NCBI GenBank assembly: GCA_016618385.1
Contig: JABFOP010000159.1
Coordinates: 438,555-502,554 of the forward strand
Direction: 5' to 3'
DNA from: Nymphon striatum
Lineage: Eukaryota
Length of the DNA stretch: 64,000 nt
Shown here piece by piece: positions 6,494-64,000 of the stretch. The position numbers and the translations under genes are program-made. The first letter of the stretch is position 1. Every line of letters begins with the position of its first letter. The notes under the pieces were generated by a model that was not told the DNA's origin, ran no database searches, and saw nothing but the letters and a program-made list of their open reading frames with translations.

Positions 6494-7566
6494 ATGTAAC
6501 CCGCCACAGCAAAATGAGTCGTAAGTCCCACAGTGACATACTGCGCTATAGCCGGTTAATGCAAAGAAAGCTTAAAACTTTCGATTTTTATGTATCTATA
6601 TAAAATAAAATCCGATATTTAATTTAATGTAAAGGTTCAGCTGATTAAATGACGCTAATTTAATTAAATTTATGTTTTCCGAGTTGATATTGTTATTATT
6701 TGCTAAAACAATGCATGAAATTAGTCAAATTACCCCATTTTCGATCATTAAATCTAAACACTTCTCCGCGGAAACCCCATGAAAATTTAACATGTACGGA
6801 CTCGTCTCGTTGTCTAGTTTCTAAATATAGAAGGCATGTTCAGGTTTTTCCCAATATAAACCAATCATCGCTCGGTACTTACAAATATGATGAACTTACA
6901 ATTATGATGGTATTTATTTTAACCTTATTGCACTAAACTCACATGGGTTTATGGCAAGCTGGAGGTCGTTTCCATCCGACTGAATGCAGTGCTTCTCTGT
7001 TAGAACTACAAGCCATGGTGGGCGAGTCCTATTTCTCACACCGCAGTCAAGAATAGGCGTTCCTCGCAGGTGCTACACTCCACCGGGATCACCCTACTCT
7101 TTATTCGAATAGTGAAGTGTGTTCTTTAGCGTGCAGAGGGTATGACTCTCCTTTACACGGGACCTCCATTTAACGTCCTATCCGAGGGACGGAGTATTTT
7201 CTCTCTAAAACCAGCCTGCATCCAGTATCAGAGAGGAGAGCACGAGAATACGCAACGTAGAGGGTGAAAAAGTGGTAGGGTACGAATGGGATTCGAACCT
7301 GGGTCTTTCAATCCCAGAACAGAGATCTTAACCACTCAGCCACCACGCCCTCTATTTAAGATCAATTATCTCAAAGTATTTTTCATTTTATCTCCGATAC
7401 CCTGAAATCTTTAAAATGTCATAATTCGGTAACCGATTGATGGATTGAAAAGCTGTTTGGATTTAATGAAAGCTGACATTCTTATCTTTCTATTGGTATT
7501 TATAACTCCATATCTCAATTTGGTGCATCACGACTCATTTTGCTGTGGTGGGTCACATATTTCATG
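6494..7566. mobile_element. MITE family B copy 1 (TIR TGTGACCCGCCACAGCAAAATGAGTCGTAAG, TA flanks), carrying a nested SINE
   Basis: 'tatgtaacccgccacagcaaaatgagtcgtaag' at the left end and 'cgactcattttgctgtggtgggtcacata' at the right end are inverted. The second copy at 26515-27476 shares termini and internal sequence but lacks the SINE. Confidence 0.6.
6912..7352 (-). mobile_element. Full-length SINE (tRNA-derived head, conserved central domain, 3' tail) inserted in MITE B
   Basis: The reverse complement begins 'gagggcgtggtggctgagtggttaagatctctgttctgggattgaaagacccaggttcgaatccc' (tRNA-like). It continues through a core 'ttagagagaaaatactccgtccctcggataggacgttaaatggag...cacttcactattcgaa' shared with six other copies in the window, then an A-rich end. 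Confidence 0.7.
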
Positions 7567-14923: not shown

Positions 14924-15528
14924 ACAAGGGTGAAAGTATTCCGGAACACACCGGATTCTCCGGTTTTTACGAGTCTTGAAGGGTCGTTTTTCCAAATTGT
15001 GTAAATCCGTTGAGATTTTTTTCAGAGAGGGGGGGAGGGGGAGAGAGAGGTATGACCCAACTCCTCAGATTTTCGATAATTAATTTCTCAAAGATACTGG
15101 ATTCAGGCTGGCTTTAGAGAGAAAATACTCCGTCCCTCTGATAGGACGTTAAATGGAGGTCCAGTGTAAAGGAGAGTCATACCCTCTGTACGTTAAAGAA
15201 CACACTTCACTATTCGAATAAAAGAGTAAAGTAATCCCGGTGAAGTGTAGCACCTGCGAGGAACACGCGGAACACCTATTCTTGACTTTTTTAAGGACCC
15301 ATACGAACCCTGAATTCCTACAAAATATGAATTACTAAGGATGTTAAGGTTATTTATAAAATGAAAACCTTAATTGCACTAACTCACAAATGGTTTTTTT
15401 GTGAGTTTAGTGCAATAAAGGTTAAAAAAAAAAATTATGAAAACACTCCCGTTTGAAGGTCCAGAGAAGATTGAAAGTTCTGAAAAAAATTTTTTCAGGT
15501 TTTTCAAAATTTTCAACTTTCACCCATG
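14924..15528. mobile_element. MITE (TIR CAAGGGTGAAAGT / ACTTTCACCCATG) related to the 11777 MITE, interrupted by a SINE
   Basis: The termini are inverted. Internal 'tccggtttttacgagtc...tgtgtaaatccgttgag' is homologous to 11795-11860. A 5'-truncated SINE sits at 15106-15432. Confidence 0.5.
15106..15432 (+). mobile_element. 5'-truncated SINE copy with poly(A) end
   Basis: Starts inside the conserved core 'ggctggctttagagagaaaatactccgtccctc'. Ends 'gtgagtttagtgcaataaaggttaaaaaaaaaaa'. Confidence 0.5.
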
Positions 15529-16169
15529 TATTTTAAAGTTCAATGGTTTATCAGGTGAATTTTATGTAAATACAATATTGAAATATGATTTGATGGCTTG
15601 TTTACTTCTACCAATGTAGCCAATGGCATTATTCACCATGTTTTTGTTTTATTCAGGACCCAATGCTTATTATTACACACAGTTCGCAAGCTGTAACAAT
15701 GAAGAGGCTTCAGAATTATGATCATCATCATGATTCTGTCTCTTTTTTTCTACTCTGGGCTAAATTCTTTTTCAGTTGTGAGGGGAGATCGTTTTTTACC
15801 CTAACAACATTCAAGTTAGTTCAACTTTTGAATGGCGAAAACAGCTTTTTTGTTCAGTATCAAATGGAATCAATTTTAAAAGCTATCTGTCAGTTGTGTG
15901 ATAAACAGAATATGAAATTCTTGACTGTTGGATATGATACATATGAAACTCATTCCATATCCTCTATATATACAGGGTGCGGTGTATACAATTACCGATT
16001 GATTTTTTAAAATTATTCACCTAGGATAAGAAAATGAAATTTGGTACACAGATTCAAATATATATTGCTAATGTATTACAGCAATCAGATTTCAAATTTA
16101 CCTCCTTTTGCCGTAACCATAACCGCCAAACGACTGGTGACTGAGTGGCATGAAATACGCACTACTTCA

Positions 16170-16772: not shown

Positions 16773-17172
16773 GCACGGGTGGCTGAGTAGTATAAGATTT
16801 TGGGCTTGATTGACTCAGGTTCGAATCTCATTCGAACCCTTAACTCATCACCATTTACGTTTTATATCTTCGTGCTTTACTCTCTGAAATCAGATGTATG
16901 GTGGTTTTAAAGAGTAAATTTTCGGACGTTAATGTAAATCACGTGTCGCACCCACTGCATGTTAAAGATCACGCTCCACTATTCGAGGAAAAAAAAGAAG
17001 TAGGGTAGATGGTGGTCTAGTCCAGGTAGATGGTGGTAATATGGAGCACCTGCAAGGTACGCAAATTATCTTGGCTGCAGCGTAAGAAACAGAATTTACT
17101 TGCCATAGCGTGAAGTTCTAACAGATAAGCACTGCTTTCAGTCAAAAGACACTGCCTCTATCCTAAAAACCT
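16773..17172 (+). mobile_element. SINE copy (tRNA-like head, core, alternative tail)
   Basis: 'gcacgggtggctgagtagtataagattttgggcttgattgactcaggttcgaatc' head, then core '...gcatgttaaagatcacgctccactattcgag', then tail 'gccatagcgtgaagttctaacagataagcactgc'. Confidence 0.55.
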
Positions 17173-21324: not shown

Positions 21325-21540
21325 TTGAGTGGATTATCCCTTTAAGTGAAAGAAAAGCCTAATGTGGTTTTCTGATCTTGAAAAACGTGCAAAATTACTT
21401 GAAGATATGTTTAGAAATATTTTGTGTCTGCAATCAGTGAAATTTGAGAGCACTTCCAAAATTAAAAGTTAAAGAGAGAACTACTGACTGACTGGCTGAA
21501 ATAAATTAGCATTAAGTTGGCATACGGAGCTCCTCACTCT

Positions 21541-21547
21541 TATAAAT
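21541..21547 (+). promoter_or_regulatory. TATA box (TATAAAT) about 45 bp upstream of the TRIM-NHL ATG
   Basis: 'cactcttataaatcgctg' is positioned appropriately for a short 5'UTR. Confidence 0.3.
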
Positions 21548-21591
21548 CGCTGTCTTCTTTCTCCTTTTCATTCCCAAGCAAAGTACTGAAA

Positions 21592-22866
21592 ATGGCAAGT
21601 GTTGTTCACGAGGTCACATCTTCTCCTTGCATAGAATGTCAAAAACCCGTTGTGAAGGGGTGTCAAATTTTAACATGCAATCATATATCTTGCAGACAAT
21701 GTTTACGGAAGACAAGCACTCAGAAACACCCCCGGAGTCTACCAGTTGTTTTCTGCAAAACGTGCAAAAGATCTGTAGCAGCAATCGACGAAGAACGAAA
21801 AAGGTATGATTGCAACATTTGTGGCAAGAAGCAGACAGTTCTGTGCGAAAACTGTGCAATGTTTTTCTGCAATCGTTGTGTCTTGACGTTGCATGTCGAT
21901 CCAAGAACCAGAGACCATTTTTTCTTAAGTTTCACAACGAAGTCTGGAAATTCGGCAAATAAAGTTGCTGACACTGGTGTTATCCCAAAAGAATGTCCAG
22001 ATAAAAGCGTACGGTTCTTTGGGAGCTACGGTACCGCTGATGGAGAATTCGTCTGCCCAAAAGGAATTTGTTCAGATCACATGGGACGAATAATAATTGT
22101 GGAAACTTTTAATCACAGAATACAGGTCTTTGACAAGAATGGTAATTTCCTGCTCAAGTTCGGCAGCCTTGGCAACAAACCAGGGCAGTTCAAAACACCT
22201 ACTGGTGTTGCCAGTAACTCCGAAGCACACATAATTGTATCTGACAGTGGCAACAACAGGATACAGATCTTCAATGCATATGGTGATTTCATCCACGAGT
22301 TTGATGGCTGTGGTAGTGATGCAGACAAATTTAACAGGCCATTGGATGTTTGCGTGAACGAGAATGATCAAATTTTGGTTGCAGACTTTAAGAACCTGCG
22401 TGTCCAGTTGTTCACCAGAGACGGTATATACATTTACTCTTACGAATTTGATAAAACCTTCGCCGCATTTTCAAACTCTCCTTTTGAGCCTCAAGGTGTG
22501 TTCTCAAAAAAAGGCAAATTTTTCGTTACCGATGTTAGGAAAAGCCTGTACGTCGTACTAGACGAGAAGCTGGAAACTGCAAGATACTTTGGAAGACTTG
22601 TTTCTTGGAATGGGGCGTACATGAATCCAAACGGCATAACCGTAGACGAAAAGGGGCGCAGATTTTTAACCGATTGTATTAGCCGTGGTATACAAGTTTA
22701 TAGAGAGGATAATGAATATTTAGGCCTCATTAATACCGATATGGCTAGCCCATCTGGTATTTGTTTCACAGCAGAAGGCGATTTGATAGTCAGCGATTCT
22801 GGTTGCAACAGGATCGGAATATTCAGCGAAGAGTTCGTCTATAGAATATTGGAAAGTTTTAAGTAA
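21592..22866 (+). CDS. Single-exon RING / B-box / 6xNHL-repeat protein (TRIM-NHL-like E3 ligase family)
   Basis: RING: 'CIECQ...CQILTCNHISCRQC...VVFCKTC'. B-box: 'CNICGKKQTVLCENCAMFFCNRCVLTLH'. Repeated NHL blades: 'GQFKTPTGVASNSEAHIIVSDSGNNRIQIF', 'FNRPLDVCVNENDQILVADFKNLRVQLF', and so on. It is an uninterrupted 424-codon ORF. Confidence 0.75.
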   Translation: MASVVHEVTSSPCIECQKPVVKGCQILTCNHISCRQCLRKTSTQKHPRSLPVVFCKTCKRSVAAIDEERKRYDCNICGKKQTVLCENCAMFFCNRCVLTLHVDPRTRDHFFLSFTTKSGNSANKVADTGVIPKECPDKSVRFFGSYGTADGEFVCPKGICSDHMGRIIIVETFNHRIQVFDKNGNFLLKFGSLGNKPGQFKTPTGVASNSEAHIIVSDSGNNRIQIFNAYGDFIHEFDGCGSDADKFNRPLDVCVNENDQILVADFKNLRVQLFTRDGIYIYSYEFDKTFAAFSNSPFEPQGVFSKKGKFFVTDVRKSLYVVLDEKLETARYFGRLVSWNGAYMNPNGITVDEKGRRFLTDCISRGIQVYREDNEYLGLINTDMASPSGICFTAEGDLIVSDSGCNRIGIFSEEFVYRILESFK

Positions 22867-24447: not shown

Positions 24448-24820
24448 AAGTGACTGAGTAATACTGGGTGGTTAAGATCTCTAGTCTGGGTTTAAATGGT
24501 CCAGGTTCGAATCTCATTCGAATCCCCCCTCTTTCATCATTTACGTTGTGTATTATAGCGCTCTCCTCTCTGATACTGGATACAGGCTGGTTTTAGAGAG
24601 AAAATACTCCGTCCCTCGGATAGGACGTTAATTGAGGTTCCGTGTAATGGAGAGACATGCCCTCTGCACGTTAAAGAACTCACTTCACTATTCGAACAAG
24701 AGTAGGGTGGAAGGTCCTGATGAAGTGGTACACTTGCATTATATAAAGATGATTTCCTCGCCAACAAGCAATTGGGCCAGCATAGCTAGTGTAACGCCCT
24801 ACTATCCCCAACTAGAGGTC
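24448..24820 (+). mobile_element. SINE copy (head + core, alternative tail)
   Basis: 'gggtggttaagatctctagtctgggtttaaatggtccaggttcgaatc' head plus core '...ttagagagaaaatactccgtccctcggataggacgttaa...cacttcactattcgaacaagagtagggtgg'. Confidence 0.6.
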
Positions 24821-30245: not shown

Positions 30246-32389
30246 AAAACATTTCCATAATTCTATATTCCGTGTACCCACACCAACCCCACGCCAACCC
30301 ACGTGACATATCCGGTTTAAGCCAGTATGCCAAGAACAAGAAAAGGAAGTTATCAAAGTCCTATATATACCCTAAAAAAATCTTTGAATTATTATCTGAT
30401 CTCCAGACCTAAGAGTGAAAGTCACTTTCACTTTTGTTGAACTCTACTATCGAATTCTCGACGATGTAAGTAAATTCTTTTTTCTTTGGAGTATCTCTTC
30501 TGTCTTGGAAGAACTCTACTATAGGGACTCATCCCTCTTACCATATTCACAAACCCCCTTTTATGACAAACCTTGAAACCACCCATAACCCCTGCTTAGA
30601 CTCCGGATTAACTCTGGAACGGACTAAAACGTCCATAAGATCGGACCCTGAACCGAGAATCACTTTGGGTTAACCATCCCTATTAATTCACCCATTTATG
30701 TATTTATCAAGTAACCACCTATCACTATAATCATTTTGAAATTGTTGAATTATATCTTTAGTAGAATTTTATCACTTATGTATGTAACCAAATTTTCAAC
30801 TATTAAACCAATCATTAAAATGTCACACTAACTCTTTCATTCCGGGCAGTAATGAAGAAGTTCATAGATCCATATTAGACTGTGGGGCAAGAGCAAATTA
30901 ACCATTCAGAAAACAAGTTTCGTAGTCCCATCAACGGCAGAGAAAACTAACTATACTAATTGATTGTGATGAAGCTGCTGATGAGAAAAAACCTTTGTTC
31001 TCCAAATTTCGTGCACCCGTTAATGAGATAATCCGCTAATTAGTTTTTAGCATTTTAACAAGAATTCCTTGAAAAAGACTAGCCTTCTCATGCCCGTAGC
31101 CAGGATTTTTTATGGGGGGGTGCCTTTTTTCGAATATAGGGACCAGTTTCAAGATGAAAGTATATAGAGAATACGATGTGGTCGTGTTTGGTATCCTGTT
31201 TATCACATAATCAATAGATAGCTTTAAAAATTAAGTAAAATTAATTTAAAATAGATTCAGTTTGAACAAATGTATAAAGAAAATTGTAAGGTTTTATCAA
31301 AGAGCCCTCCGGCCAAATTATTATAAACATTTTCCGATCTGTCACCTCTTTAAAATGCTCGTAAATAAGTTAAATTACACTGTTGAAACCCCCCGGTCAA
31401 ACCATTAAAATGGGGACCTGGTCAAGTCAAATTCAATAAAAGCATCTGAGTAAAATGGAAAACCATTAAGAAAACTAATAGATAAGAGCCATTTGACATT
31501 TTTCAAGATTATTGCCACTTTAAATCGGTTACCCATTAAAAACATCTCTCACCGTTAAGAAGTTAATCGTTTTATAACACGTTTTTATACATGTGTTTAT
31601 ACCATTTTTAGGTCCACTGAGATCGGTAGAATAACCGCCCTATTATGTGATAAACATTATTATCTGCAATGATGACAAGGTCGAGGGACAAAATTGCAAC
31701 TGCAGCTCAACTGGGCAAGCAAGCTCTCTACAGGAAATTAAAATTGCCCAGAAACACAAAAATGAGCGAGAATCTAAAAATATTTATTTTTGAAAAATTT
31801 TTTAAAAGTGCATATTCAAGTGTAATTTTTCAAAGTGGACCTTTGGCTGTTTTGTGGGGGGGGGGGTGCCCAGGCACCCTAAACACCCCCTCTGGCCACG
31901 GGCATGCTTCTTCTTTTCAAAAAATGGTACAAGTTTTTCCTCAGGAGCCTGTAGAGTGCGCTCTCTGGTCTTTTTTTACTGTCTTTTGCCTGTCGTTTGT
32001 CGAGTCCATAATGGGACGAGAACTTGCAGCTGATCTGTGCTGAATTGCGATGCCGTTGGTATTGTGTGTAGTGCCTCTTCCTGAGAGTGTCTCCTCACCA
32101 AAGTCATTGTTATCCCACACAAGTGTTGTAAAAACACTTTCTTGGAGGCATGACGGCAACTTGGATCCACCAGTACGGATTTCCTGCTTGGCCAATGCAG
32201 TGTCATCTTCCAGTGCCAAAGTATGAGACGTTGCATGATTAAAACCATTAAGAAGACCAATCAGATGGGCCGAGCCGGTGAGATGTCGAACAGCCATGGC
32301 AAGAGAGGTGAGTTTTGGCATTGGTTTTCTTCCCTTTGAAGCTAAGTATATCACGTCTTGAGATATCGAAAGAGATATCAAAAATTTCA

Positions 32390-34687: not shown

Positions 34688-35285
34688 TTTTTTTTTTAAA
34701 ACCTTATTGCACTAAACTCGCATGGGTTTATGGCAAGCTGGAGGCCGTTTCCATCCGACTGAATGCAGTGCTTCTCTGTTAGAACTGCAAGCCATAGTGG
34801 GCGAGTCCTATTTCCCACACCGCAGTCAAGAATAGGTGTTCCTCGCAGGTGCTACACTGTTAACAGGATATGGTCGGGCGACCAGAAAATATATAGTATA
34901 GACGTGACTAACCATAAGTTTAATGGTTGCTACGACCATTAAACTTATGGTTAGTCACTAGCATATGTTTTCTGGTCGCCCGACCATATCCTGTTAACAG
35001 TGTACACTCCACCGGGATCACCATACTCTTTATTCGAATAGTGGAGTGTGTTCTTTAACGCGCAGAGGGCAAGACTCTCCTTTACACGAGACCTCTATTT
35101 AACGTCCTATCCGAGGGACAAAGTATTTTCTCTCTAAAACCAGCCTGCATCCAGCCTGCATCCAGTATCAGAGAGGAGAGTACGAGAATACACAACGTAA
35201 AGGGTGAAAAAGTGGTGGGGTTCGAATTGGATTCGAACCTGGGTCATTCAAGCCCAGAACAGAGATCTTAATTACTCAAATGATA
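34688..35285 (-). mobile_element. SINE copy carrying a nested 134-bp palindromic MITE
   Basis: Co-linear with the 6912-7352 SINE except for an insertion at 34869-35002. Confidence 0.65.
34869..35002. mobile_element. 134-bp near-perfect palindromic MITE with TACACT target duplication
   Basis: 'gttaacaggatatggtcgggcgaccagaaaa...ttttctggtcgcccgaccatatcctgttaac'. 'tacact' occurs at 34863-34868 and 35003-35008. The uninterrupted SINE copy at 7060 reads 'gctacactccacc'. Confidence 0.65.
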
Positions 35286-41256: not shown

Positions 41257-44200
41257 TTAACTGACATTATAATTATTAATAGAAAAAAATAGTGAAAGTG
41301 CTTTACCTCCTTCTGGTTTCAGACATTCAATAATCTTACTGACGGAGTAAAGAGATATTTTATTTCCACATTTTGTGCATACAATTTCCATATGATCTTT
41401 CCAAGCTATGTAAAATGCATCATGTTTACATTTGTAACAAATGAAGTAACAATCTTGTCTCAAACCGGGAACAGTTTCGATTGATTCAGAAATCATCTGG
41501 TATATTTCAAAAAGAACGTTCCTAAGTTCTTTTTTGTTCCCTTTTTTTAAGAAGAAAACTTCCATGCTGACACACATTGTTCCATAATCACATTCGCTCA
41601 TTGTTATCATTGCTTTCATACAGTTGAGATGCATAATGATTCCTGCTCGCCATGTAATGGTCAATTGACAGTCATTACAGCTTATAAGACCATAAAGTCT
41701 AACGATGATTTTAGACATAATTTCTGGGCATGAAGGTATATTTCTAAAACGAATTTCATATGTGAAATAACCCTGTTCTACAGATTCTTTAAATACTTTA
41801 AATTTGAGGTCATTTTTTAAATCTTTCTTTTGATAACATGGGAAAACATATTGTCGTCTTTCACACAAAATACTTGTTTCGTCCTTGAATTTTAATCTAT
41901 AACAACATTCTATCTTTTCCAAGAAGCCCAAAAGATGCTTTGTTTCCATTTCATTTTGGAGGTAATTTTGGATAAGCACTTCTAGTATAAGTTCAGATAA
42001 AACTCCTTCCTTAAGTAAATCCAGCATTTTATGTAGTGTTTCCGGATCTATATTCAGTTTATTTGCCTTTTCGTTTAGTGTTTCTAAAAGACCTTTAGTC
42101 AATGAAAATAATTTAAAGAAGGTTTTTTCTTTTGAGAACAAAGCTTCCAAATCATGGTGGAAAAGACTTCTAAGGTATGATATAAGAACTGCAGGACGAT
42201 GAAATATGACTTCTTCATGTTCTCTGGGTCGATGACGAATAATTTTTCCAATTTCTTCCAAGTATGTTAAAGTGACTTCCACATCGCTTAAATTCACTAT
42301 CTTTGCATAATCGCATGCCATTTCTTTTAGAAATATAAAATGAACAACTATTTTCTTTCATAACAATTTCTTCAAATCTATTCCATGAAACTGGTGTTCT
42401 TCTTAGAATTTTCTGCTCATCACTCATATAAAATTTTTGAACTATATCTTTGACTTTTTTAACGCTGATATGCATGGTATTCAAGCAATTAATTGGTAGA
42501 ACGTCTATAATTACTGGCATTAACATTTTCGGATGGTCCTACACATCTCTTTATTTCTATATACTCATTCCATCTAATTTTTAACCAATTAATTCTTATT
42601 TCAAGTAATGTTTATATTCAATCTTGTCAACATGCGATGCCAGTATTATAACGTGTGCATTTGAAACGTAAGAAGTCAACATATCACACCACCTACCAAC
42701 CTGAGTATGAAAAGACTGTTTTGAATAAATGGATATGTCCACAACTAGTATGTAGATAGAATTTTTTGAAAAGAAGAGGCAATGTGTTGATTCGTAGATA
42801 TCCTGTCCAGCTAGATCGTAGAATTTCATATTCATTTGGATCTCCGACAAATACACTTCATAATATCCGATCCACTCGTGTTCTTTCGGGTGATCTCGTG
42901 AAATGGCCGAGCATGATAGTTATGCATGAAACTTGTCTTGCCTGACAGGCTTTTCGCCCAGCATGACGATTCTAGCTTCAGGTTCTTTGTAGATTATTTC
43001 ATATGAATCATGTAAGTATTTTTTAATACCATGAAGTCCCAAGTTTAAAATACTCTCTTGTGGATAGATAAAAGGATTACCTTCATACAAAAAAGTATGC
43101 ACGCTATCTGGAACCGCTTCAAAGCAAAATGTTTTCAATTCTATTCTTCGAAATGTCCAATGATAGTTAACGTTTCTGTGATAACAACTGATTCAATGTT
43201 GTCGATCTGAAGTATAGCGTTCTGCTGCATTGATAAGAATTTCAACAATTTCAATACCAAATATTTTATGTGATACACTGTTTCATTCTATTATTGGACA
43301 CATCAATGTTTTCCTAAAAGGATTAAATTATAGATACTATCTGGAATTTTTTCTATTTTATTTTGGCTTAGATTTATTTGTTCGAGGTTTTTCAGAGAAT
43401 CAAATAAAGCCTCTGATACATTAGTGATCCCAGTTTTACTCATATCCAAAACTTTGAGATTTGGCAAGTCCACATTATATTGTTCTAAATTTGGGAGATA
43501 ACAACACGACAAATTTAATTCCTGTTAAACTTTTCATCCGAAAAATATACTCAGGAACATAATAATTACTTCCTTTTAGAGAAAATTTTTTCAGTCTGGT
43601 TAAATTAGTTGGAGGAGGAACAGCAATGATTAAAAGATGATTAGAATAGCCGTCAACAATCTTATCCTGCAGAGACAGGTTTTCGACAATTTCCATTAAT
43701 TTGGTACAATCAGCCAATTTTAACTTATTTCCAGACAAATTAACGTACTTTAAGCTATCAGGAAATATTATACTTGAAATTGAGTCAATGATCATTGTGA
43801 TCTAGCACATAAATTAATTAAGTTTTTTAATTCAGATATTTCATCTGGAATAATTTTGATTGCATTTCTTGATATATATAAATTTTGAAGCTTTTCCATG
43901 TATTTTATATCGGAAGGAAGCTTTTCAATCATATTTTTTGATAGATCTAAGTGAAAAATATTCGTTAACTTGAACAGATCATTAGGAATTTGCTCCAATC
44001 TATTATCATATGCAATAAGCTCCTGCATATCTTTCATATTTAATAAAGTTTCAGGTAGATGTTCTAGATAGCAACATGAAATATTTAAGTGCGTGATTCT
44101 AAATGAACTAGGTGAGTTAAAAACGTTGGCTTTGACTTAAAAGACTATGATAAATGGTATCAGAATTAGTATCGAACAATCCGTAACTTTGGAAATTAGC

Positions 44201-50503: not shown

Positions 50504-53500
50504 TCAAAGTGCCTTACCTCCTTCTGGTTTCAGACTTTCAATAATCTTACTGACAGAGTAAAGGGATATTTTATTTCCACATTTTGTGCATACAATTTCC
50601 ATGTGATCTTTCCAAGCTATGTAAAATGCATCATGTTTACATTTGTAACAAATGAAGTAACAGTCTTGTCTCAAACCGGGAACAGTTTCGATTGATTCAG
50701 AAATCATCTGGTATATTTCAAAAAGAACGTTCCTAAGTTCTTTTTTGTTCCCTTTTTTTAAGAAGAAAACTTCCATGCTGACACACATTGTTCCATAATC
50801 ACATTCGCTCATTGTTATCATTGCTTTCATACAGTTGAGATGCATAATGATTCCTGCTCGCCATGTAATGGTCAATTGACAGTCATTACAGCTTATAAGA
50901 CCATAAAGTCTAACGATGATTTTAGACATAATTTCTGGGCATGAAGGTATATTTCTAAAACGAATTTCATATTTGAAATAACCCTGTTCTACAGATTCTT
51001 TAAATACTTTAAATTTAGGGTCATTTTTTAAATCTTTCTTTTGATAACATGGGAAAACATATTGTCGTCCTTTCACACAAAATACTTGTTTCGTCCTTGA
51101 ATTTTAATCTATAACAACATTCTATCTTTTCCAAGAAGCCCAAAAGATGCTTTGTTTCCATTTCATTTTGGAGGTAATTTTGGATAAGCACTTCTAGTAT
51201 AAGTTCAGATAAAACTCCTTCCTTAAGTAAATCCAGCATTTTATGTAGTGTTTCCGGATCTATATTCAGTTTATTTGCCTTTTCGTTTAGTGTTTCTAAA
51301 AGACCTTTAGTCAATGAAAATATTTAAAGAAGCTTTTTTCTTTTGAGAACAAAGCTTCCAAATCATGGTGGAAAAGACTTCTAAGGTATGATATAAGAAC
51401 TGCAGGACGATGAAATATGACTTCTTCATGTTCTCTGGGTCGATGACGAATAATTTTTCCAATTTCTTCCAAGTATGTTAAAGTGACTTCCACATCGCTT
51501 AAATTCACTATCTTTGCATAATTGCATGCCATTTCTTTTGAAATATAAAATGAACAACTATTTTCTTTCATAACAATTTCTTCAAATCTATTCCATGAAA
51601 CTGGTGTTCTTCTTAGAATTTTCTGCTCATCAGTCATATAAAATTTTTGAACTATAGTCTTTGAACTTTTTAACGCTGATATGCTTGGTATTCAAGCAAT
51701 TAATTGGTAGAACGTCTATAATTACTGGCATTAACATTTTGGATGGTCCTACACATTTCTTTATTTCTATATACTCATTCCATCTAAATTTTAACCAATT
51801 AGTTCTTATTTCAAGTATGTTTACATCAATCTTGTCAACATGCGATGCCAGTATTATAACGTGTGCATTTGAAACGTAAGAAGTCAACATATCACACCAC
51901 CTACCAACCTGAGTATGAAAAGACTGTTTTGAAAAAATGGATATGTCCACAACTAGTATGTAGATAGAATTTTGTGAAAAGAAGAGGCAATGTGTTGATT
52001 CGTAGATATCCTGTCCAGCTAGATCGTAGAAGTTTCATTTTCATTTGGATCTCCGACAAATACACTTCATAATATTCAACCTACTCGTGTTCTTTCGGGT
52101 GATCTCGTGACATGGCCGAGCATGATGTTATGCATGAAAGTTGTCTTGCCTGACAGGCTTTCGCCCAGCATGACAATTCTAGCTTCAGGTTCTTTGTAGA
52201 TTATTTCATATGAATCATGTAAGTATTTTTTAATACCATGAAGTCCCAAGTTTAAAATACTCTCTTGTGGATAGATAAAAGGATTCCCTTTATACAAAAA
52301 ATCATGGACGCTATCTGGAACAGCTTCAAAGCAAAAATGTTTCATTTTATTCTTTGAAATGTCTAAAGATATTAACGATTTCTGTGATAACAACTGATTC
52401 AATGTTGTCGATCTGAAGTATAGCGTTCTGCTGCAGTGATAAGAATTTCAACAATTTCAAACCAAATATTTTATGTGATACACTGTTTATTCTATTATTG
52501 GAAACATCAATGATTTCCAGAAGATTTAAATTATAGATACACTCTGGAATTTTATCAATTTGATTTTGGCTTAGATTTATTTGTTCGAGGTTTTTCAGAG
52601 AATTAAATAAGGCCTCTGATAGATTAGTGAGCCCAGTTTTACTCATATCCAAAACTTTGAGATTTGGCAAGTCCACATTACATTGTTCTAAATTTGGGAG
52701 ATAACAACACGACAAATTTAATTCTGTTAAATTTTTCATTCGAAAAATATACCCAGGAACATTATAATAATTACTTCCTCTTAGAGAAAATGTTTTCAGT
52801 CTGGTTAAATTAGTTGGAGGAGGACCAGCAATGTTTAACATATGATTAGCATCGACGTTAAATATCATATCCTGCATCGACAGGTTCTCAACAATTTCCA
52901 TTAAATTGGTACAACCTGCCAATTTTAACTTATTTCCAGACAAATTAACGTACTTTAAGCTATCAGGAAATATAATACTTGAAATTGAGTCAATGATATT
53001 GTGATCTGCACATAAATTAGTTAAGTTTTTTAATTCAGATATTTCATCTGGAATAATTTTGATTGAATTTCTTGATATGTACAAATTTTGAAGCTTTTCC
53101 ATGTATTTTATATTGGAAGGAAGCTTTTCGATCATATTTTTTGATAGATCTAAGTGAAACATTTTCGTTAACTTGAACAGATCATTAGGAATTTGCTCCA
53201 ATCTATTATCATATGCAATAAGCTCTTGCATATCTTTCATATTTAATAAAGTTTCAGGTAGATGTTCTAGATTGCAACATGAAATGTTTAAGTGCGTGAT
53301 TCTAAATAAGCTAGGCGAGGTAAAATGATGGCTTTGCATGAGAAGGGTTTGAACAGGTGAATTATAACGTAATCCGATATATGTAAAAGATTGGTCGAAT
53401 GCTATATCAGAAAATATTAAATTATTTGAAACATCTAATTTCTTTAAATTTGGCATTCTAAGAAACTTATCAATAAGTAAAACAAGTCTACACCCTGCCA

Positions 53501-53874
53501 TGTTCAGCTCCTCAACTTGTTGGAAACTTAAGACAATCGATGCATCATCATTTACTGCATTTCCTTTGAAACAGATATGTATACTTTTAGTCAGGAACTC
53601 AAATGATGATAAATACGGTTTGAATGTTGGATGATCGCTATTACAAAATTCGACAAAGTCACTTGCTTCGTATAGTGAAGAAATGTTTTTCCAAATCTCT
53701 TTACAACGTTCTGATGCATACGCCTCTGAGATATTTAACTTTTCTTCAGTCGATTGTGAATATCTTTCCAATTTTATGTTCATAGAAATTACATTTGTTA
53801 TTTGAGACCTCTTGTTCAAATTTTTTCACTTCTTTTACGAATGTTTTGCTGAAAAAATACGTCCATATTGACAT
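50504..53874 (-). pseudogene. ROCO-family gene copy B (LRR / Roc GTPase / COR), more complete but frameshifted
   Basis: LRR ORF 52347-53819 has about 15 LxxLxLxxNxIxxLP repeats. Roc P-loop 'RIVMLGESLSGKTTF' is present. Switch-II 'FYDLAGQDIYES' is present only in a shifted frame. 'VGRWCDMLTSYVSNAHVIILASHVDKI' follows. COR-like ORFs lie at 50504-51637. Probable ATG is at 53872-53874 ('MSIWTYFFSKTFVKEVKKFEQE'), followed by a 1-bp insertion that creates a TGA. Confidence 0.6.
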
Positions 53875-55744: not shown

Positions 55745-56190
55745 TTAGGTGAAATTTCCTTTTTATTTTAGAATTTAATTATTTGGATTTCTACACTGTT
55801 TGCCTTTACTACAACTACAAAATGTCACACATGTTATGTTCCTTTCTCTGCAAGTGCACGTTTTGATACTCATACATGATGTTGGGCATTTGCATGGAGA
55901 GGGCAGGTCATCGGGCCTACACGATACTGGCAGTAACTGGTGCTATGCCAACATCCGTTGCTTCATATCCATACTGGAGTGGATCTGGTTTGGTGACTGC
56001 TGGAGTTGGAGCTTGCTACCACATTTTACACTGCAGATATGATCGCTTTATGTGTTCTCGTAGCGTTGATGCTATGAGCAACACACAAGCTGGTTGAAGT
56101 CAAGCTCTTGTTTGGAGTTGTGGTACTGCTCCCATCGATATTCATCGAAAGTTGAACAGTCGGTCTTCTTTAATCCAGACACAAGGAACT
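55745..56190. repeat. Left arm of a large inverted duplication (partner at 56760-57195)
   Basis: 55801-56190 is the reverse complement of 56760-57150 at about 93% identity. The flanks 55745-55800 and 57151-57195 are also inverted matches. Confidence 0.7.
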
Positions 56191-57150
56191 TTTCAGCATT
56201 GTTTGTTATCTCTGGTGACAGTTCTTCTACACCAAATACTTCCAGTAGTGAGATATCCATGGATGTTCTCAGGCCAGACAGCTTTGGACCCACCTTGCTG
56301 GTACTGTCGCAACCACTGAGAGTATGAATGGCTGGGAGACACGACACCAAACTGTTGTCAAGTTGATCAACCAACAGGTAGACTGGAACAGTTTTCTTTG
56401 TTTTCCGGTTACCAAGCTTCACGTACAGCTTTTGTAGTTGCCAGGATTTGTTGAAGTAGAAGATGAGGTTAACAAAGACATCTGTGTCAGGTGAGTCAAC
56501 CAAGACTGATTGGACCCCGTGTTTCACAGCACCATCGTTAATATGGAACATGATTCTGTCGTCGGCTTCTTCTTGGTTGCTTGCGAGCTCTGCGATCTGT
56601 GTTTCAGTGCCAGCCTAACAGTTTCCTGCATTCTCTCCCCATATACTCCTCCAAAGAAGATCTCTTTGTTCGACTCGACATTCTGCAGCATCCATTTGAA
56701 GACATACTCCTGCAACCGAACTTTGTTCAACGTTGAGCTCCAGAACATATCAAGATCGACAGGGTTCCTTGTGTCTGGATTAAAGAAGACCGACTGTTCA
56801 ACTTTCGATGAATATCGATGGAAGCAGTACCACAACTCCAAACAAGAGCTGGACTTCAACCAGCTTGTGTGTTGCTCATCAACGCTACGAGAACACATAA
56901 AGCGAGCATATCTGCAGTGTAAGATGTGGTAGCAAGCCCCAACTCCTGCAGTCACCAAACCAGATCCACTCCAGTATGGATATGAAGCAACGGATATTGG
57001 CATAGTACCAGTGATACTGCCAGTATCGTGTAGGCCCGATGACCTGCCCCCTCCATGCAAATGCCCAACATCATGTATGAGTATCAAAACGTGCACTTGC
57101 AGAGAAAGGAACATAACATGTGTGACGTTTTGTGGTTTTAGTAAAGGCAA
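56072..57150 (-). pseudogene. Second member of the FEN-like/H3TH family, frameshifted, embedded in about 450-bp inverted duplication arms
   Basis: Minus-strand 'QIAELASNQEEADDRIMFHINDGAVKHGVQSVLVDSPDTDVFVNLIFYF...CLPAIHTLSGCDSTSKVGPKLSGL' parallels 'NHEEADTRIFAHIA...VIQATDTDIIFLAMYHF...ILSGCDSVSYPFKRGKK' of the 59845 ORF. There is a frame break near 56540. Confidence 0.5.
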
Positions 57151-57224
57151 AAAGTATAAAAATCCAAATAATTAAATTCTAAAATAGGAACAATATGCAA
57201 AAGGTACAACAGGTAATATGATGA

Positions 57225-57834: not shown

Positions 57835-58701
57835 AGCTACTCTAGTATATGAGTGTCTTGAAGCGCTATTCCAAAATGTTGGCGTGTTATAGCCATTCTT
57901 ATATCATGTACCAAAATGAAGGTTTTCACTTGAATTTCATTTGTCATTAGATTAAAAAGTCAATTGTGAGTTGGCTATTGATCGTAATCGAATTTTGATT
58001 GTAAGCAGGTTATAGAGCTTGAAGTAAGGAAGACAACAATGTGCGTCTTGAAATCAAGTTCCAAAATTTGGGGGAGTTATAGCCATTCTTAGATCATGTA
58101 CCAAAAATAATTTTTTCGTTTGAATCTAATTTGTCATTCGATTAAAATGTCGATTGTGAGTCGCCTATTGATCGTAATCGAATTTGGATTGAGGGCAACT
58201 TATAGAGCTTGAAGTAAAGAAGACAACTATGAGTGTCTTGAAGCGCTATTCCAAAATGTTGGCGTGTTATAGCCATTCTTATATCATGTACCAAAATGAA
58301 GGTTTTCACTTGAATTTCATTTGTCATTAGATTAAAAAAGTCAATTGCGAGTTGGCTATTGATCGTAATCGAATTTTGATTGTAAGCAGGTTATAGAGCT
58401 TGAAGTAAGGAAGACAACAATGTGCGTCTTGAAATCAAATTCTAAAATTTGGGGGAGTTATAGCCATTCTTAGATCATGTACCAAAAATAATTTTTTCGT
58501 TTGAATCTAATTTGTCATTCGATTAAAAAGTCGATTGTGAGTCGCCTATTGATTGTAATCGAATTTAAATTTGACACATGTTATAGAGTTTGAAGTAAGG
58601 AATACAACTATGTGCGTCTAAAAACGCTATTCTAAAATTTAGTGCGTTATAGCCATTCTTAGATCATGTACCAAAATGAAGGTTTTCGCTTAAATTTCAT
58701 T
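57835..58701. repeat. Satellite array (same 185-bp family as 18020-19768), truncated by an insertion
   Basis: Monomers 'ttatagccattcttagatcatgtaccaaaa...gtcgattgtgagtcgcctattgatcgtaatcgaatt'. The array stops at '...aaatttcatta' at 58701. Confidence 0.7.
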
Positions 58702-59385
58702 AGGCCAAACAAAAAAAAGGCTGTGTTTCCGGTAACGGTCTTGACAGACGGGAGGGTCGGTAGGTCGGTTTTATTTTTTTTTTTATTTATTATTTTTTTT
58801 TTTTATATAAAAATTATAAAAGTTAATAATATTAACTTTTATAATTTTTATATTAATTTTTTATTTAATATTTTTTATTTTATTCCCTTCACCCACCAAT
58901 TATACCATTTACTTCATTTGAAGGGCTATCTACATTTGATTCAAAGAAATACAAGTGTTTAAATCATTTAATTTAGACAAACATCATAGAGAAAAGAGAA
59001 GAATAAAAATCCAATTAACACTTAGCTTAATATATCCAGATTTTCACACCCAGAATATGTTCTTTGCATCTCTCTAATGTTTTTGGGAAAGTAATGCCCC
59101 GATTGAACTTCAATTACTGGCATGAATGTCACTTTAACTTTTCATAAATTAATAAAAAATCACCAAAATCCGGCATTTGACTATATATCCCATAATAAAG
59201 AGGTGAATGCAACAAATTACCACTCATTCTTTTTGTTATAAGCTTGGCTCTTATATGAAACAAGATTCAATGCAATTGGACCATCCATGAGGTCACCAGA
59301 GGTCAAAAGGTCACGAAAAGTGGGTTAAGCTGAAAATGTAACGCCTTTATCAAATAATTCACATTTTTACTACTTTGTAGTCTTT

Positions 59386-59690
59386 GGAGTCGCGGTGGCT
59401 GAGTGTTTAAGATCGTTATTCTGGGCCTGTAGGACCCAGGTTCGAATCTTATTCGAACCCCGCCACTTTTCACCGTTTTACGTTGTGTATTCTCGTACTT
59501 TCCTCTGATATTAGATGTAAGCTGATTTTAGAGAGAAAATACTCCGTCCCTCGGATAGAACGTTAAATGGAAGTCCCGTGTAAAGGAGAGCCATACCCTC
59601 TACACGTTAAAGAACCCACTTTGCTATTCGAACAAAAGTAGGGTGACAATTCCCGGTGAAGTGGTACACTTTCATTACATCAATTAGGAC
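59386..59690 (+). mobile_element. SINE copy nested in the composite element
   Basis: 'ggagtcgcggtggctgagtgtttaagatcgttattctgggcctgtaggacccaggttcgaatc' head plus conserved core. Confidence 0.6.
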
Positions 59691-59916
59691 CGCAATGGAA
59701 ATAAGTCTTTGGACTTTCTTGCGTCATCTTAGTTGAACATACTGTTTACCTAATAAACTCAAATCAAATCAAAGTAGTTGATGTATCCACATTTTCACAC
59801 CCAAAATATGTTCTTTGCATCCCTCTAATGTTTTTTAACTTTCTTTGCTTTCGTCTCTACTTGAAAGTGTTAGAACTGCATTTGAGAGGAAAGAGAAGGG
59901 CGAATCTGCTGCACTC

Positions 59917-61650
59917 ATGGAGGAAGTCATGAAATGCCTCGAGTCACTGGAGTCGCTCTGGGGAGATTTTGAGAGTGAATTAGGAGTAACAGCCCGTCTT
60001 TGGAGCATGTACATAGACATGATGCTTATTCTAAGGCGTTACATCCATGCTGAGAGAGCTGGGCTATGGCAACAACACTTACAAGAGGTACGGAATATGC
60101 TACCCTATACCATTGCTTCCGGTCATAGTAAGTATATGTCCTGCCTTCCGATCTACCTAAATGAAATGCAAAAGCTTCCAGAAACAGCACCAGAAGTGCA
60201 CGAGGAGTTTGCAGCTGGCAAATTCACAGTTCACCAGACTGCAGGAGACTTCAATGGTGTGTGGACAGACCTTGCAATGGCATTCATCCAACGGTTCAAC
60301 ACACTTGGTTCGAGTACATTTGGCCAACTTCAGGAAAGATACAGGGACAAACTCTTGAACATGAAACCCAGACATTGCACTGAAGTGCATTTCGTGGGCG
60401 ATCAATATGATTTTGAGTTGAAGAGTCTAAAGTCCGATGAACGCCAGAGACAGGAGTCAAATATCAACTTGCCAGAGTATGTTCCAGCGGACAGCATGAA
60501 AATCCCTGATTGGAAGACATTGCTATCAAACCCTTGTAACAGGACCAATATGCTGTCTTATCTTGCTTCACGTTGGTCTCAGGAGGCATCCTGGCCTGCT
60601 GGCTTCTGCCTGGTTCTTGGAGTGAACGCCCAGGCAACTCGTGTGACGCAGACGGAACATACCGATGTTGATGAACTGTATTGCCCTAACCACGAGGAGG
60701 CTGACACCAGAATCTTTGCTCACATTGCTAGTTGTGACGACAACAACGTATTTGTCATTCAGGCTACAGATACAGATATCATCTTCTTGGCAATGTATCA
60801 TTTCCCTCGATTGCCAAACGTTGTTGAGTTATGGGTGGAGAAGAATGATCTGTTCCTCTCCATCCATGATTTAGTGAATGAGTTGGCCAAAGCAGTTGGA
60901 AAGGACGGGTTAGCACTCACAGACACACTGCTCATCTCATACATTCTGTCCGGTTGTGATTCGGTGAGCTATCCTTTCAAACGAGGTAAGAAGAGAACAG
61001 TGAAAGTCGCACTCGAGCATGTTGACAAACACCCAACTTTGTCCAATTGCATCCGACACGAATCCGGTCCTTCTGCACATGATCAGGTGATAACTGAAGC
61101 ACGAAGCTTCTTTTGTGATCTTTACGGAAAGCCAGGGTATTTATCCCTGGATAAGCTACGCGCCCACTTGTTTGCATCTAGCAAACTAGATCTGCGCTCC
61201 CTTCCTCCAACAGAAGATGCGTTTCACTTCCATGTTCTCAGGAGCCTTTGTCAGATCTGCTTATACAAGCAAGCCTCACTCAGCAATCCAGTGCTTCTTC
61301 CACCTGAAGAGTATGGCAGAATTGTGGATGGTGACAGGTTAATTCCTGTCATGAAGAGCAAGCCATCAAAGCCTTCTGCTGCGAAGTTAAAGTACTGTAA
61401 ATGCAAGAAGAAACCGAACTGCCTGAGGAACTGCCCTTGTGCGAAAGCTGCAGTACCATGCATAATTGCATGTGCCTGCAATGGCGACAGAGAAAAATGT
61501 GGACGGCTTCTGACTGATCATTATGATGATGATGATGATAATGATGATGATGATGATGATGATGAGGAAATAGTGCTAATGACACTTTTGTACCGCACAA
61601 TTAAAAATGAAATATATGTAGTTAAATTCCTGATTTTAGTGATTTTTTAA
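59917..61650 (+). CDS. Uncharacterised protein: putative PIN/FEN-like 5'-nuclease core + H3TH-like motif + C-terminal CxC cysteine cluster + poly-Asp tail
   Basis: Open frame 59839-61650 (601 aa from TTG; first ATG at 59917, giving 577 aa). 'NHEEADTRIFAHIA', 'VIQATDTDIIFLAMYHF', 'LISYILSGCDSVSYPFKRGKKRTVKVAL', 'CKCKKKPNCLRNCPCAKAAVPCIIACACNGDREKCGR', 'DHYDDDDDNDDDDDDDEE'. There are no internal stops. Confidence 0.6.
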   Translation: MEEVMKCLESLESLWGDFESELGVTARLWSMYIDMMLILRRYIHAERAGLWQQHLQEVRNMLPYTIASGHSKYMSCLPIYLNEMQKLPETAPEVHEEFAAGKFTVHQTAGDFNGVWTDLAMAFIQRFNTLGSSTFGQLQERYRDKLLNMKPRHCTEVHFVGDQYDFELKSLKSDERQRQESNINLPEYVPADSMKIPDWKTLLSNPCNRTNMLSYLASRWSQEASWPAGFCLVLGVNAQATRVTQTEHTDVDELYCPNHEEADTRIFAHIASCDDNNVFVIQATDTDIIFLAMYHFPRLPNVVELWVEKNDLFLSIHDLVNELAKAVGKDGLALTDTLLISYILSGCDSVSYPFKRGKKRTVKVALEHVDKHPTLSNCIRHESGPSAHDQVITEARSFFCDLYGKPGYLSLDKLRAHLFASSKLDLRSLPPTEDAFHFHVLRSLCQICLYKQASLSNPVLLPPEEYGRIVDGDRLIPVMKSKPSKPSAAKLKYCKCKKKPNCLRNCPCAKAAVPCIIACACNGDREKCGRLLTDHYDDDDDNDDDDDDDEEIVLMTLLYRTIKNEIYVVKFLILVIF

Positions 61651-62413
61651 AAATTTATGTAAATCTAAAGTGACATTCATGCCAGTAATTTAAGTTCAGT
61701 CGGGGCATTACTTTCCTAAAAACATTAGAGGGATGCAAAGAACATATTCTGGGTGTGAAAATCTGGATATATTAAGCTTAAAGTAGGAAAAATGTGAAAT
61801 GTTTGATAAAGGCGTTAAATTTTCAGCTTGACTCACTTTCCGTAACCTTTTGACCTCTGTTGACCTCATGGATGGTCCAATCAAATTGAATCTTGTTTCA
61901 TATAAAAGCCAAGCTTATAACAAAAAGAATGAGTGGTCATTTGTTGCATTCACCCTTTTATTATGGGATATATGGTCAATTGAATTTCCCCTACCCCTCA
62001 ATTTCTTGTTTTTTACAATTGACGCTCCATGTTAAAAAAACGTCCCTACAGAATTCGTGCAATTCAAACCACCTTGCTAACGTCACTTTTCTGATGGCTA
62101 ACACCCCCACAGACATGATCTAGGGGTCAAAAATTTTATATTAGGGGTGTCACATAAAAATCAAATTTTGAGGTCTCGGATCCCAGACTATCAATACTAA
62201 AGAGAATCCGTTGACACGACATATTTGTTGCACTGATCTATATAGTAGTCTGCACTGTTCAGGGTGCCATGATAGATTTACCATCAGAATTATCACTTGT
62301 CAGTCAACGGCACTGGTCAACGGGCTATCTGATGAGTACGAGAACCATATTATATATATATTTATCGCACAACCTTGACTTTATTGCATGCATTTGGAGT
62401 TCTTATATTTCCT

Positions 62414-62488
62414 GTATAAGGACACGTCCCTATATATATCGTATAAGGACACGTCCCTATATATATCGTATAAGGACACGTCCCTATA
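62414..62488. repeat. 26-bp tandem repeat x3 (gtataaggacacgtccctatatatatc)
   Basis: Read directly in the sequence. Located inside the composite element. Confidence 0.7.
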
Positions 62489-63394
62489 TTGGTGTTGATT
62501 ACAGACACAGGGAGTCTGAGATTGTGAATGTTGCCTACCACAAATTTATTGTTCCTTTGTTATATTCCAAACACGCCGTTTACTTAACAAGTCAGTTCTC
62601 GAGTTTCAATTATGTTCAGTTGCGTCATTTCTATTTTGTTGAATTGAAGAAATCGGATATTTTCTAACCGACTTCTCGGAATTCATTGAAGTGTTTAAAC
62701 TTTTCCCCCTCCCGTTCTCACCCTCTCACCCTCTCAGCAATTTATATTCTTTTTTTTAGCTTGACTGGCACAAAACGAATCAATTTTAAAATCTATTTTA
62801 ATTAATAAATTCATTTTCAAAGCTACCTGCCGGTTGTGCAATAAACAGAATATAAAATTCGTGCCCGTTGCCACGAGATATATGGAACTCGTCAACTTAG
62901 TTTTAATTTCAGCTCGCCAAGGCTCGCCAAGGCTCGCTGAAATAAAAACAAAGTTGACTCGTTCCATATATTTCGTAAGCAACGATCACTCATTCTATAT
63001 CCTCTATTTATATATTTTTTATATTTACGAGAACCATATACCCATCACTGAGCGGAAGTTTAAAATCGAAATCGAAAGTGCAGTTAAACTGTACTTTCGA
63101 TTTCGATTTTAAACTTCCGGTTAAACTGTACTTTCGATTTCGGTTTTAAACTTCCGCTCAACTACGCACGTGCGCACAAGGAGGTGTAATGACACGAAAG
63201 GAATGGCCGTAGTTTGTAACAGATTTTTACTATTTAACGCATTTTAAGAGGTAGTTTTGTGACGTTTTTTCTTTACCATTTCATGCTTTTTACTATGTTT
63301 TTCCCGAATCATCATAAAAACTTTTCAGTCGGCGGTAAAATAACACGGTCGGTCGGGTTACCGGAAACACAACATTTTTTTTTTTTGGCCTTAG

Positions 63395-63700
63395 TAATTC
63401 GATTAAAAAGTCGACTGTGAATCGCCTATTGATCGTAATCCAATTTAAATTTGACGTATGCTATAAATCTTGAAGTAAGGAAGACAACTATATGTGTGTC
63501 TTGAAATCAAATTCCAAAATTTGGGTGAGTTATAGCCATTCTTAGATCATGTACCAAAAATAATTTTTTCGTTTGAATCTAATTTGTCATTCGATTAAAA
63601 AGTCGATTGTGAGTCGCCTACTGATCGTAATCGTATTTGGATTGAGGGCAAGTTATAGAGCTTGAAGTAAGGAAGACAACATGTGTGTCTTTGTAGCTCC
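63395..63700. repeat. Satellite array resuming after the insertion (about 1.7 monomers)
   Basis: 'taattcgattaaaaagtcgactgtgaatcgcctattgatcgtaatccaattt...' continues the monomer interrupted at 58701. Confidence 0.7.
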
Positions 63701-64000
63701 CCAGGTTAAAAAGATATGGGGAACCAACAGTATTGGAGAAATTGAGCCCTCAATATGAATTTTTGTGGCCATATTTAATAAGACTAATTAGGCCCTTTCC
63801 CGAGGTCAGAATTTTGGTGGATTTTATGTATTTACAATCCTGAGAACCTATAGAATCAGAATCAGCAAACAGAAATTCTTTTTCAATTTTTTCTAGGTCA
63901 AATATTAAATTGACTGGACTACTTCTCCGATTGCAAATTTATGACAAAATTTGAAATTGGCGGCCATTTTGGACGTTTTAAACCTCTAAATAATGATTTT

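Follow-up and report, generated by a model that had tools for sequence, protein, structure and literature searches.

A defective AcademX element within a probable Harbinger-like carrier in a satellite array of Nymphon striatum

Introduction

An insert of 4,688 bp, at positions 58703-63390, interrupts a tandem satellite in a 64,000-nt stretch of Nymphon striatum contig JABFOP010000159.1 (hereafter the window, in whose positions all coordinates are given), and its long open reading frame (ORF) encodes a protein with a FEN-like nuclease module. The locus raises the question of what kind of transposon this is and which enzyme moves it. The original prediction, made from the letters alone, took it for an undescribed transposon and offered two readings: a nuclease-encoding element nested in a Harbinger-like miniature inverted-repeat transposable element (MITE), or a non-canonical one relying on the FEN-like protein itself. 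The evidence favours the nested arrangement; with a probability of about 0.7 the insert is a non-autonomous Harbinger-like carrier that holds a dead AcademX element as cargo and is moved in trans. It is an ordinary nested case, new at the level of the family but belonging to two kinds of transposon that are already known.

Insertion into a satellite monomer

The interrupted satellite, as defined by TRF, repeat families and monomer alignment, has a 190-bp monomer and a 381-bp higher-order unit. The left block, the target of the insertion, spans 57848-58701 and its in-phase continuation spans 63394-63706, confirming the expectation of one satellite on either side of unrelated DNA. The empty site can be reconstructed in register: removal of 58703-63390 together with one TTA restores a 192-bp monomer whose junction is gap-free against its neighbors, and retention of both TTAs, at 58700-58702 and 63391-63393, leaves an insertion of exactly 3 nt relative to those neighbors, i.e. 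a target-site duplication (TSD) of 3 bp. Taken alone, the window copy may also be read as a 4-bp TTAG duplication with asymmetric ends.

The outer inverted repeat arms (58702-58736 and 63357-63391) are 35 nt long, 91% complementary and begin with GGCC; the terminal inverted repeats (TIRs) proper occupy 58703-58736 on the plus strand (GGCCAAACAAAAAAAAGGCTGTGTTTCCGGTAAC) and 63357-63390 on the minus strand, and their sequence has an unusual A-run. They are the only such pair in the window, no further copy being found elsewhere in its 64 kb, and the 15-mer TGTGTTTCCGGTAAC of the TIR is present at two places, both in the outer arms, against 0.09 expected by chance. Other genomic copies with the same termini are visible in gene models: the left end is exonised in the gene model P0008 (amino acids 49-67), and the right end is read through in gene models of six other loci. 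The insert is a cut-and-paste-type transposon insertion with both the TIR of about 35 bp and the TTA duplication that had been predicted. The alternative of no transposition at all, with two independent satellite arrays flanking unrelated DNA, can appeal only to the general frequency of satellite rearrangements, and it is refuted by the gap-free in-phase empty site with its exact 3-nt duplication and by a 35-bp TIR that is unique in the window and belongs to a composite present at many loci.

Short GGTCGG repeats at 58755-58770 and 63340-63352 adjoin the two outer TIRs in the same (+) orientation and are not inverted.

The ORF as an AcademX fragment

The Academ superfamily was reportedly described by Kapitonov and Jurka in 2010. 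Transposons in which a transposase is combined with an XPG nuclease as well as a Cys8 finger constitute the Academ/AcademX superfamily (Kojima 2020, PMC7165386), and it is to these that the ORF of the insert belongs. The ORF runs on the plus strand from 59845 (TTG) or 59917 (ATG) to 61650 and encodes 601 or 577 amino acids. Pfam and PDB sequence searches (phmmer/hmmsearch) with the window ORF were empty. A homologue search gave dozens of N. striatum copies that are 77-98% identical (many of them 95-98%) and, from other assemblies, relatives of 850-1,010 amino acids that are 40-59% identical. An exhaustive search returned 6,035 representative clusters. Many of the clusters are 1,400-1,640 amino acids long and match within their last ~430 residues; in some relatives of ~1,600 residues the transposase region matches DUF6589 or the C-terminus matches the TCR/CXC domain.

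Residues 52-145 of the window ORF match the transposase segment of Academ-3_BF with 39% identity (BLASTP, E=5e-27), so that the "undescribed" label of the original prediction falls, Academ/AcademX being already known. Two full-length loci from other assemblies, L001 and L002 (the latter with ORFs of 691 and 930 amino acids), have an additional N-terminal zinc-finger region and carry the motifs CAFDNLDF, TCDQAIYD, GGFH and DLALEQ; the N-terminal part of L002 matches Academ-3_BF (E=3e-8) in a stretch that spans the motifs of the first two catalytic Asp residues, DN(L/N)D and (C/F)D(Q/L)AIY. The motifs DNLD, CDQAIY, GGFH and ALEQ are conserved in Academ transposases (Kojima 2020, PMC7165386, supplementary alignment). 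That paper mentions no pycnogonid Academ family, no wider literature search for one having been made.

Alignment to L002 reveals what the window copy has lost and that its ORF arose by deletion from one encoding a much longer protein, a point that goes beyond the original prediction. By tblastn the ORF begins at about residues 115-148 of the second L002 reading frame and skips L002 residues 290-496. The N-terminal loss amounts to ~800 amino acids of the two L002 frames (691 + ~110) and includes the zinc-finger region and the first two catalytic Asp residues. The internal deletion of ~210-260 amino acids yields ...GVWTDLA|MAFIQRF... in place of ...WTDLALEQTYN...VVDAMAFIQRF..., and with it the catalytic Glu of ALEQ is gone, although the deleted stretch is still present in the N. 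striatum paralogues P0009, P0011 and P0018. What is left is a remnant of the transposase insertion domain (~59992-60276), the deletion junction WTDLA|MAFIQ (60262-60291), an XPG/FEN-like domain C-terminal to the transposase part (~60274-61230), and a Cys-rich CXC finger (61393-61506) followed by an acidic tail. The window copy has no intact D, D, E triad; since all of these residues are lost, the ORF cannot transpose anything, and the copy is AcademX by descent but non-functional.

The nuclease module

Modelling with AlphaFold2, as the original prediction had suggested, was applied to 60274-61530 on the basis of 30 homologues and reached a pLDDT of 85.5 and a pTM of 0.86; for this model Foldseek gave no matches in the PDB. 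As modelled, the ORF holds a FEN/XPG-type nuclease fold (FEN-like plus H3TH) followed by a CXC-like Cys-rich module. The original FEN-like, H3TH and CxC call was therefore right, and the combination is the XPG module of AcademX. The acidic residues of the FEN1 active site lie in the order DA(M/S), E-x-E/D, D-x-D, G-x-D. The window domain has the acidic motifs GDQYD (60397), HEEADTR (60691), DTD (60766) and GCD (60952) in what appears to be that same order. To FEN1, XPG, EXO1, GEN1 and XRN, the structure-specific 5' nucleases with a PIN-like domain and H3TH, it shows no sequence similarity detectable by Pfam, PDB phmmer/hmmsearch or Foldseek, and in contrast to cellular repair enzymes of the FEN1 type it is transposon-borne and N-terminally clipped. 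Aligned homologues share the Cys pattern CKCKKxxCLRxCxCAxAxVxCxxxCxC...KC, and the relative P0147 scores above the cutoff for Pfam TCR/CXC (PF03638), whereas the window ORF itself has no Pfam match. The window nuclease is probably impaired as well, because the deletion junction replaces its first strand and alters the context of the first Asp (WTDLA|MAFIQ versus VVDAMAFIQ).

These properties bear on the possibility that the insert represents a novel type of transposon, mobilized by the FEN-like/CXC protein itself. The ORF is open over 601 codons, is 95-98% identical among many copies, and keeps the acidic motifs GDxYD, HEEAD, DTD and GCD. However, it is a fragment of an AcademX protein of 1,500-1,600 amino acids without its N-terminal part, ~210-260 internal residues and every DDE residue; in full-length relatives the nuclease module always stands behind a DDE transposase domain; the junction has taken the first nuclease strand and changed the first Asp context; and chance would be expected to leave ORFs open among copies so young. 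A mobilizing role of the protein, the second reading of the original prediction, is thus very improbable. Somewhat less so, and still quite improbable, is that the GGCC-ended, TWA-targeting unit belongs to a new Academ-derived lineage, or is a hybrid in which the XPG-CXC ORF aids excision or repair in trans; such a role of the nuclease would explain why the ORF has stayed open in at least 20 young copies.

The internal inverted repeats as AcademX TIRs

The ORF is bracketed by the internal inverted repeats of ~350 bp that were noted originally, with their permuted X/Y order and a partial X copy, all of which are present. The X pair (59024-59188 and 61614-61778) is 92% and the Y pair (59174-59376 and 61780-61982) 91% similar, and the partial copy X' (59778-59835) is 93% similar to X. 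They do not delimit a second kind of element, as had been thought, but belong to the AcademX element itself as its long TIRs. A scan with the published terminus TAGTC[ACT][AG]G gave one match inside the insert, on the minus strand from 62190 (TAGTCTGGGATCCGAGACC...TGACACCCC), which places the end of the right arm 208 bp beyond the limit seen originally. The right arm, ~577 bp on the minus strand (61614-62190), comprises rcX (61614-61778), rcY (61780-61982) and a terminal segment T of 208 bp (61983-62190); it ends ...GGATCCCAGACTA, the reverse complement of which, TAGTCTGGGATCC, is a canonical AcademX terminus. The closest relatives, L003, L004 and L005, whose proteins share 56-59% identity with the window ORF, have TIRs of 400-500 bp with the same start. 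The reverse complement of 61614-62190, which reads T(208)-Y(203)-X(165), aligns with these over ~550 bp; X and Y are thus the inner two-thirds of an AcademX TIR of ~577 bp.

Published descriptions agree with this assignment. Academ termini follow a rule of 5' pyrimidine to 3' purine, typically TAGTC...GACTA, and the AcademX termini of A. digitifera, TAGTC[ACT]GGG, match the inner terminus of the window (PMC7165386). As in AcademX (Academ-3_BF; Academ-4 to -9_ADi), where a single large protein unites a DDE transposase with an XPG-type nuclease and a Cys-rich finger, the inner element has the terminus TAGTCNGGG..., and long TIRs of more than 100 bp are a property of some AcademX families as well. 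A 3-bp TSD is seen in the close relative L005 (TAT/TAT), and L003 is flanked by ATG/ACG. The window copy differs from AcademX elements in being a remnant, with neither DDE residues nor a left terminus and with an internal deletion, a rearranged left TIR and a short interspersed element (SINE) insertion, and it is no longer the mobile unit.

The rearrangement concerns the left arm. The Y segment (59174-59376, plus strand), as aligned to the L003, L004 and L005 TIRs, has lost the outermost 208 bp including the terminus, and no copy of T is found on the left or elsewhere in the element or window. Outside Y lies an extra copy of the inner segment X (59024-59188, plus strand), a rearrangement product joined to Y via the microhomology GAC[CT]ATATAT. 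X' (59778-59835, plus strand) is the first 58 bp of X fused to the truncated ORF and marks the 5' deletion junction.

Several observations accompany these TIRs. No more than a few bp separate the start of the extra X copy from the point where the SINE inserted. The motif AGGTCAccagAGGTCAaaAGGTCA (~59290-59315 and ~61840-61865) contains three AGGTCA half-sites and is almost invariant between species, as seen in the TIRs of L003, L004 and L005 (alignment columns 360-385), though identity of the transposon proteins is no higher than 56-59%; a transposase-binding or regulatory site is conceivable. L001 (7030-14071) and L002 (120-7305) are apparently full-length AcademX elements of ~7 kb with TAGTCAG termini, and unlike the matched TAT/TAT of L005 their flanking triplets are mismatched (ATT/TAT and TTT/AGA).

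A SINE in the left arm

The segment 59391-~59772 (plus strand, 3' limit approximate), likewise unrecognized before, is a SINE with a tRNA-like head that separates Y from X', as established by alignment with five other copies in the window. The head reads GGTGGCTGAGTGGTTAAG...GGTTCGAATC and the conserved core is ~200 bp; ARAGORN called no tRNA in the head. The family copies in the window lie at 7076-7347(-), 24464-24747(+), 34999-35278(-), 15093-15247 and 16778-16919, and some N. striatum gene models (P0011, P0018) have taken up pieces of the SINE as exons.

The carrier and its family

Outside the AcademX remains lies DNA specific to the carrier. On the left (58737-59023) it is A/T-rich with a palindrome at 58802-58856; on the right (62191-63356) other N. 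striatum copies likewise have it co-linear with the ORF. Sequence, repeat and Pfam scans found no coding remnant in either part. The Pfam scans gave no match for the carrier's own ORFs, and within the element they disclosed no ORF or remnant of a DDE_4 transposase or of a Myb/SANT/MADF partner, which is expected of a non-autonomous copy yet leaves membership in PIF/Harbinger unproven.

The assignment accordingly turns on the ends. Translated read-through across the right outer end in the six other loci gives ...GLPETQHFFCLA, i.e. ...TTTGTTTGGCC, and the codon that follows is a stop in three of them and Leu in the other three; together with the TTA of the window, the flanking triplet is compatible with TAA/TTA in 7/7 loci. 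A 3-bp TWA duplication is a hallmark of PIF/Harbinger (PMC6850418; bioRxiv 10.64898/2026.05.26.728016), while published AcademX TSDs vary (ATT, AAA, TAT, TAC and TTA; PMC7165386), and it is mainly because TWA fits all seven loci that the carrier is called Harbinger-like. By its TSD and the form of its termini it behaves like a non-autonomous member of this group, so that the Harbinger-like outer ends of the original prediction, with a 3-bp TWA duplication and neither transposase nor Myb ORF, hold. With the Tourist-like MITEs mPing and mJing and the Harbinger-1M_cIno derivatives it shares the TTA/TAA duplication, GG-initial TIRs, the lack of a transposase or Myb/MADF ORF, and a multi-copy, often intronic distribution. 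It differs from Tourist-like MITEs in its 4.7-kb length, which is not that of a MITE and is due to 3.2 kb of foreign cargo (AcademX plus SINE), and in the A-run of its TIR; in contrast to known Harbinger derivatives it is placed by its end features, with no autonomous partner identified.

A number of points weigh against this reading. No autonomous Harbinger with these TIRs was seen, the N. striatum assembly lying outside the search, and the superfamily is called solely from the TSD and terminus form; AcademX likewise generates A/T-rich TSDs of 3 bp; for the six other loci the TSDs are deduced from translated gene models and not from DNA; the inner element, lacking its left terminus, offers no TSD pair that shows a clean insertion into the carrier; and the X-Y-SINE-X' order on the left remains unexplained.

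There are two other views of the carrier. The entire 4.7-kb unit might be a non-autonomous AcademX that acquired GGCC termini and is mobilized by an AcademX transposase, given that the cargo is itself AcademX, that animal AcademX elements produce 3-bp A/T-rich TSDs, and that a loose resemblance exists between the outer TIR and subterminal sequence in the TIR of L002 (A-run ... TCCGG). However, the canonical AcademX terminus is internal, at 62190, the outer ends are G...C against the pyrimidine...purine rule of Academ, and the triplets are TWA-compatible in all seven loci, unlike the varied published AcademX TSDs; this origin is unlikely. The proposed homology of the outer TIR to the subterminal TIRs of L002, L001 and A. 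digitifera (GCCAGAC..AAAAA..TCCGG) was rejected, p in shuffle tests being 0.02-0.2 over 12 comparisons and not significant. Doubtful to the same degree is a carrier from another superfamily with 3-bp TSDs, e.g. Zator or an uncharacterized group, which gains from the fact that the tie to Harbinger consists only of the TSD and a GG-initial TIR. Against it, TWA specificity is characteristic of PIF/Harbinger, and termini of the CACTA type are absent from the outer ends.

The right carrier DNA also contains 2.8 copies of a 27-bp tandem repeat (62414-62489), a MITE-like foldback unit ~170 bp long (62841-63011), to which a piece elsewhere in the window (15873-15972) is 78-92% similar, and then a near-perfect hairpin (63049-63160). 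Rfam gave nothing above threshold for the carrier palindromes; its sub-threshold hits are microRNA-like hairpins, among them microRNA-precursor matches of 63049-63160.

Copies elsewhere in Nymphon striatum

The composite is present at at least ~20 distinct N. striatum loci, as listed from clusters of gene models. In P0008, a CNOT6 gene model, an intronic copy is exonised, and splicing connects its left outer TIR (58704-58760) with the ORF; in the clusters P0003, P0004 and P0005 the ORF is linked to 62263-63390. The ORF is thus joined to carrier DNA from both outer sides, which shows that the amplified unit is the whole composite and not the AcademX part alone.

Many annotated host proteins are chimeric gene models that contain the ORF of this transposable element, as in P0002, P0008, P0010, P0012, P0014, P0015, P0069, P0076, P0232 and P0234; the names borne by chimeric models include SLC23A2, CNOT6, SNX12, POMK, RRP36, zinc-finger protein, greatwall kinase, lipase-related protein and Erlin-2. 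A cryptic splice acceptor just upstream of ...VRTAFDRKEKGE recurs in them, and in CNOT6 the outer TIR is exonised via the acceptor ttAG|GCC and the donor CG|GTAGGT.

Assembly and spread of the composite

A plausible history for a Harbinger-like carrier with its triply defective AcademX cargo would begin with the entry of an AcademX element into the carrier, or its capture by it, followed by loss of its left end; the SINE would have landed afterwards in the left AcademX TIR. As the carrier is without a transposase of its own, a Harbinger-type transposase and DNA-binding partner encoded elsewhere would excise and reinsert it in trans. In this manner would have spread the composite, which has been amplified as one unit to at least ~20 loci, one copy entering the satellite monomer of the window. 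The arms of the AcademX TIR differ by 8-9% and the composite copies by 2-5% at the protein level, consistent with a cargo older than the amplification burst.

Other features of the window

Just upstream of the satellite is an inverted duplication of ~425 nt (55764-56189 and 56764-57186), 96-98% complementary with a 574-nt spacer, whose opposite strands encode a very divergent AcademX XPG-like fragment of 22-26% identity; it stands for another Academ family, older and the second in the window. A third Academ remnant, at 32037-32372(-), is 38% identical to the AcademX transposase region (first ORF of L002, residues 417-528). ORFs of host type at 21517-22866(+), 52347-53819(-), 41257-42321(-) and 50504-51076(-) show B-box and NHL-repeat (TRIM-NHL-like), leucine-rich-repeat and two weak COR-B (Roc-COR) matches.

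Significance

A false lead toward a new class of transposon is hereby removed: transposons with a FEN/XPG nuclease are the known AcademX elements, which Pfam and sequence searches do not recognize. For N. striatum annotation, the ORF of this element contaminates ~20 or more gene models or forms chimeras with them. The locus provides a clean example of the remains of one transposon amplified by the machinery of another family, and it adds to AcademX a lineage with long TIRs whose sequence is conserved between species.

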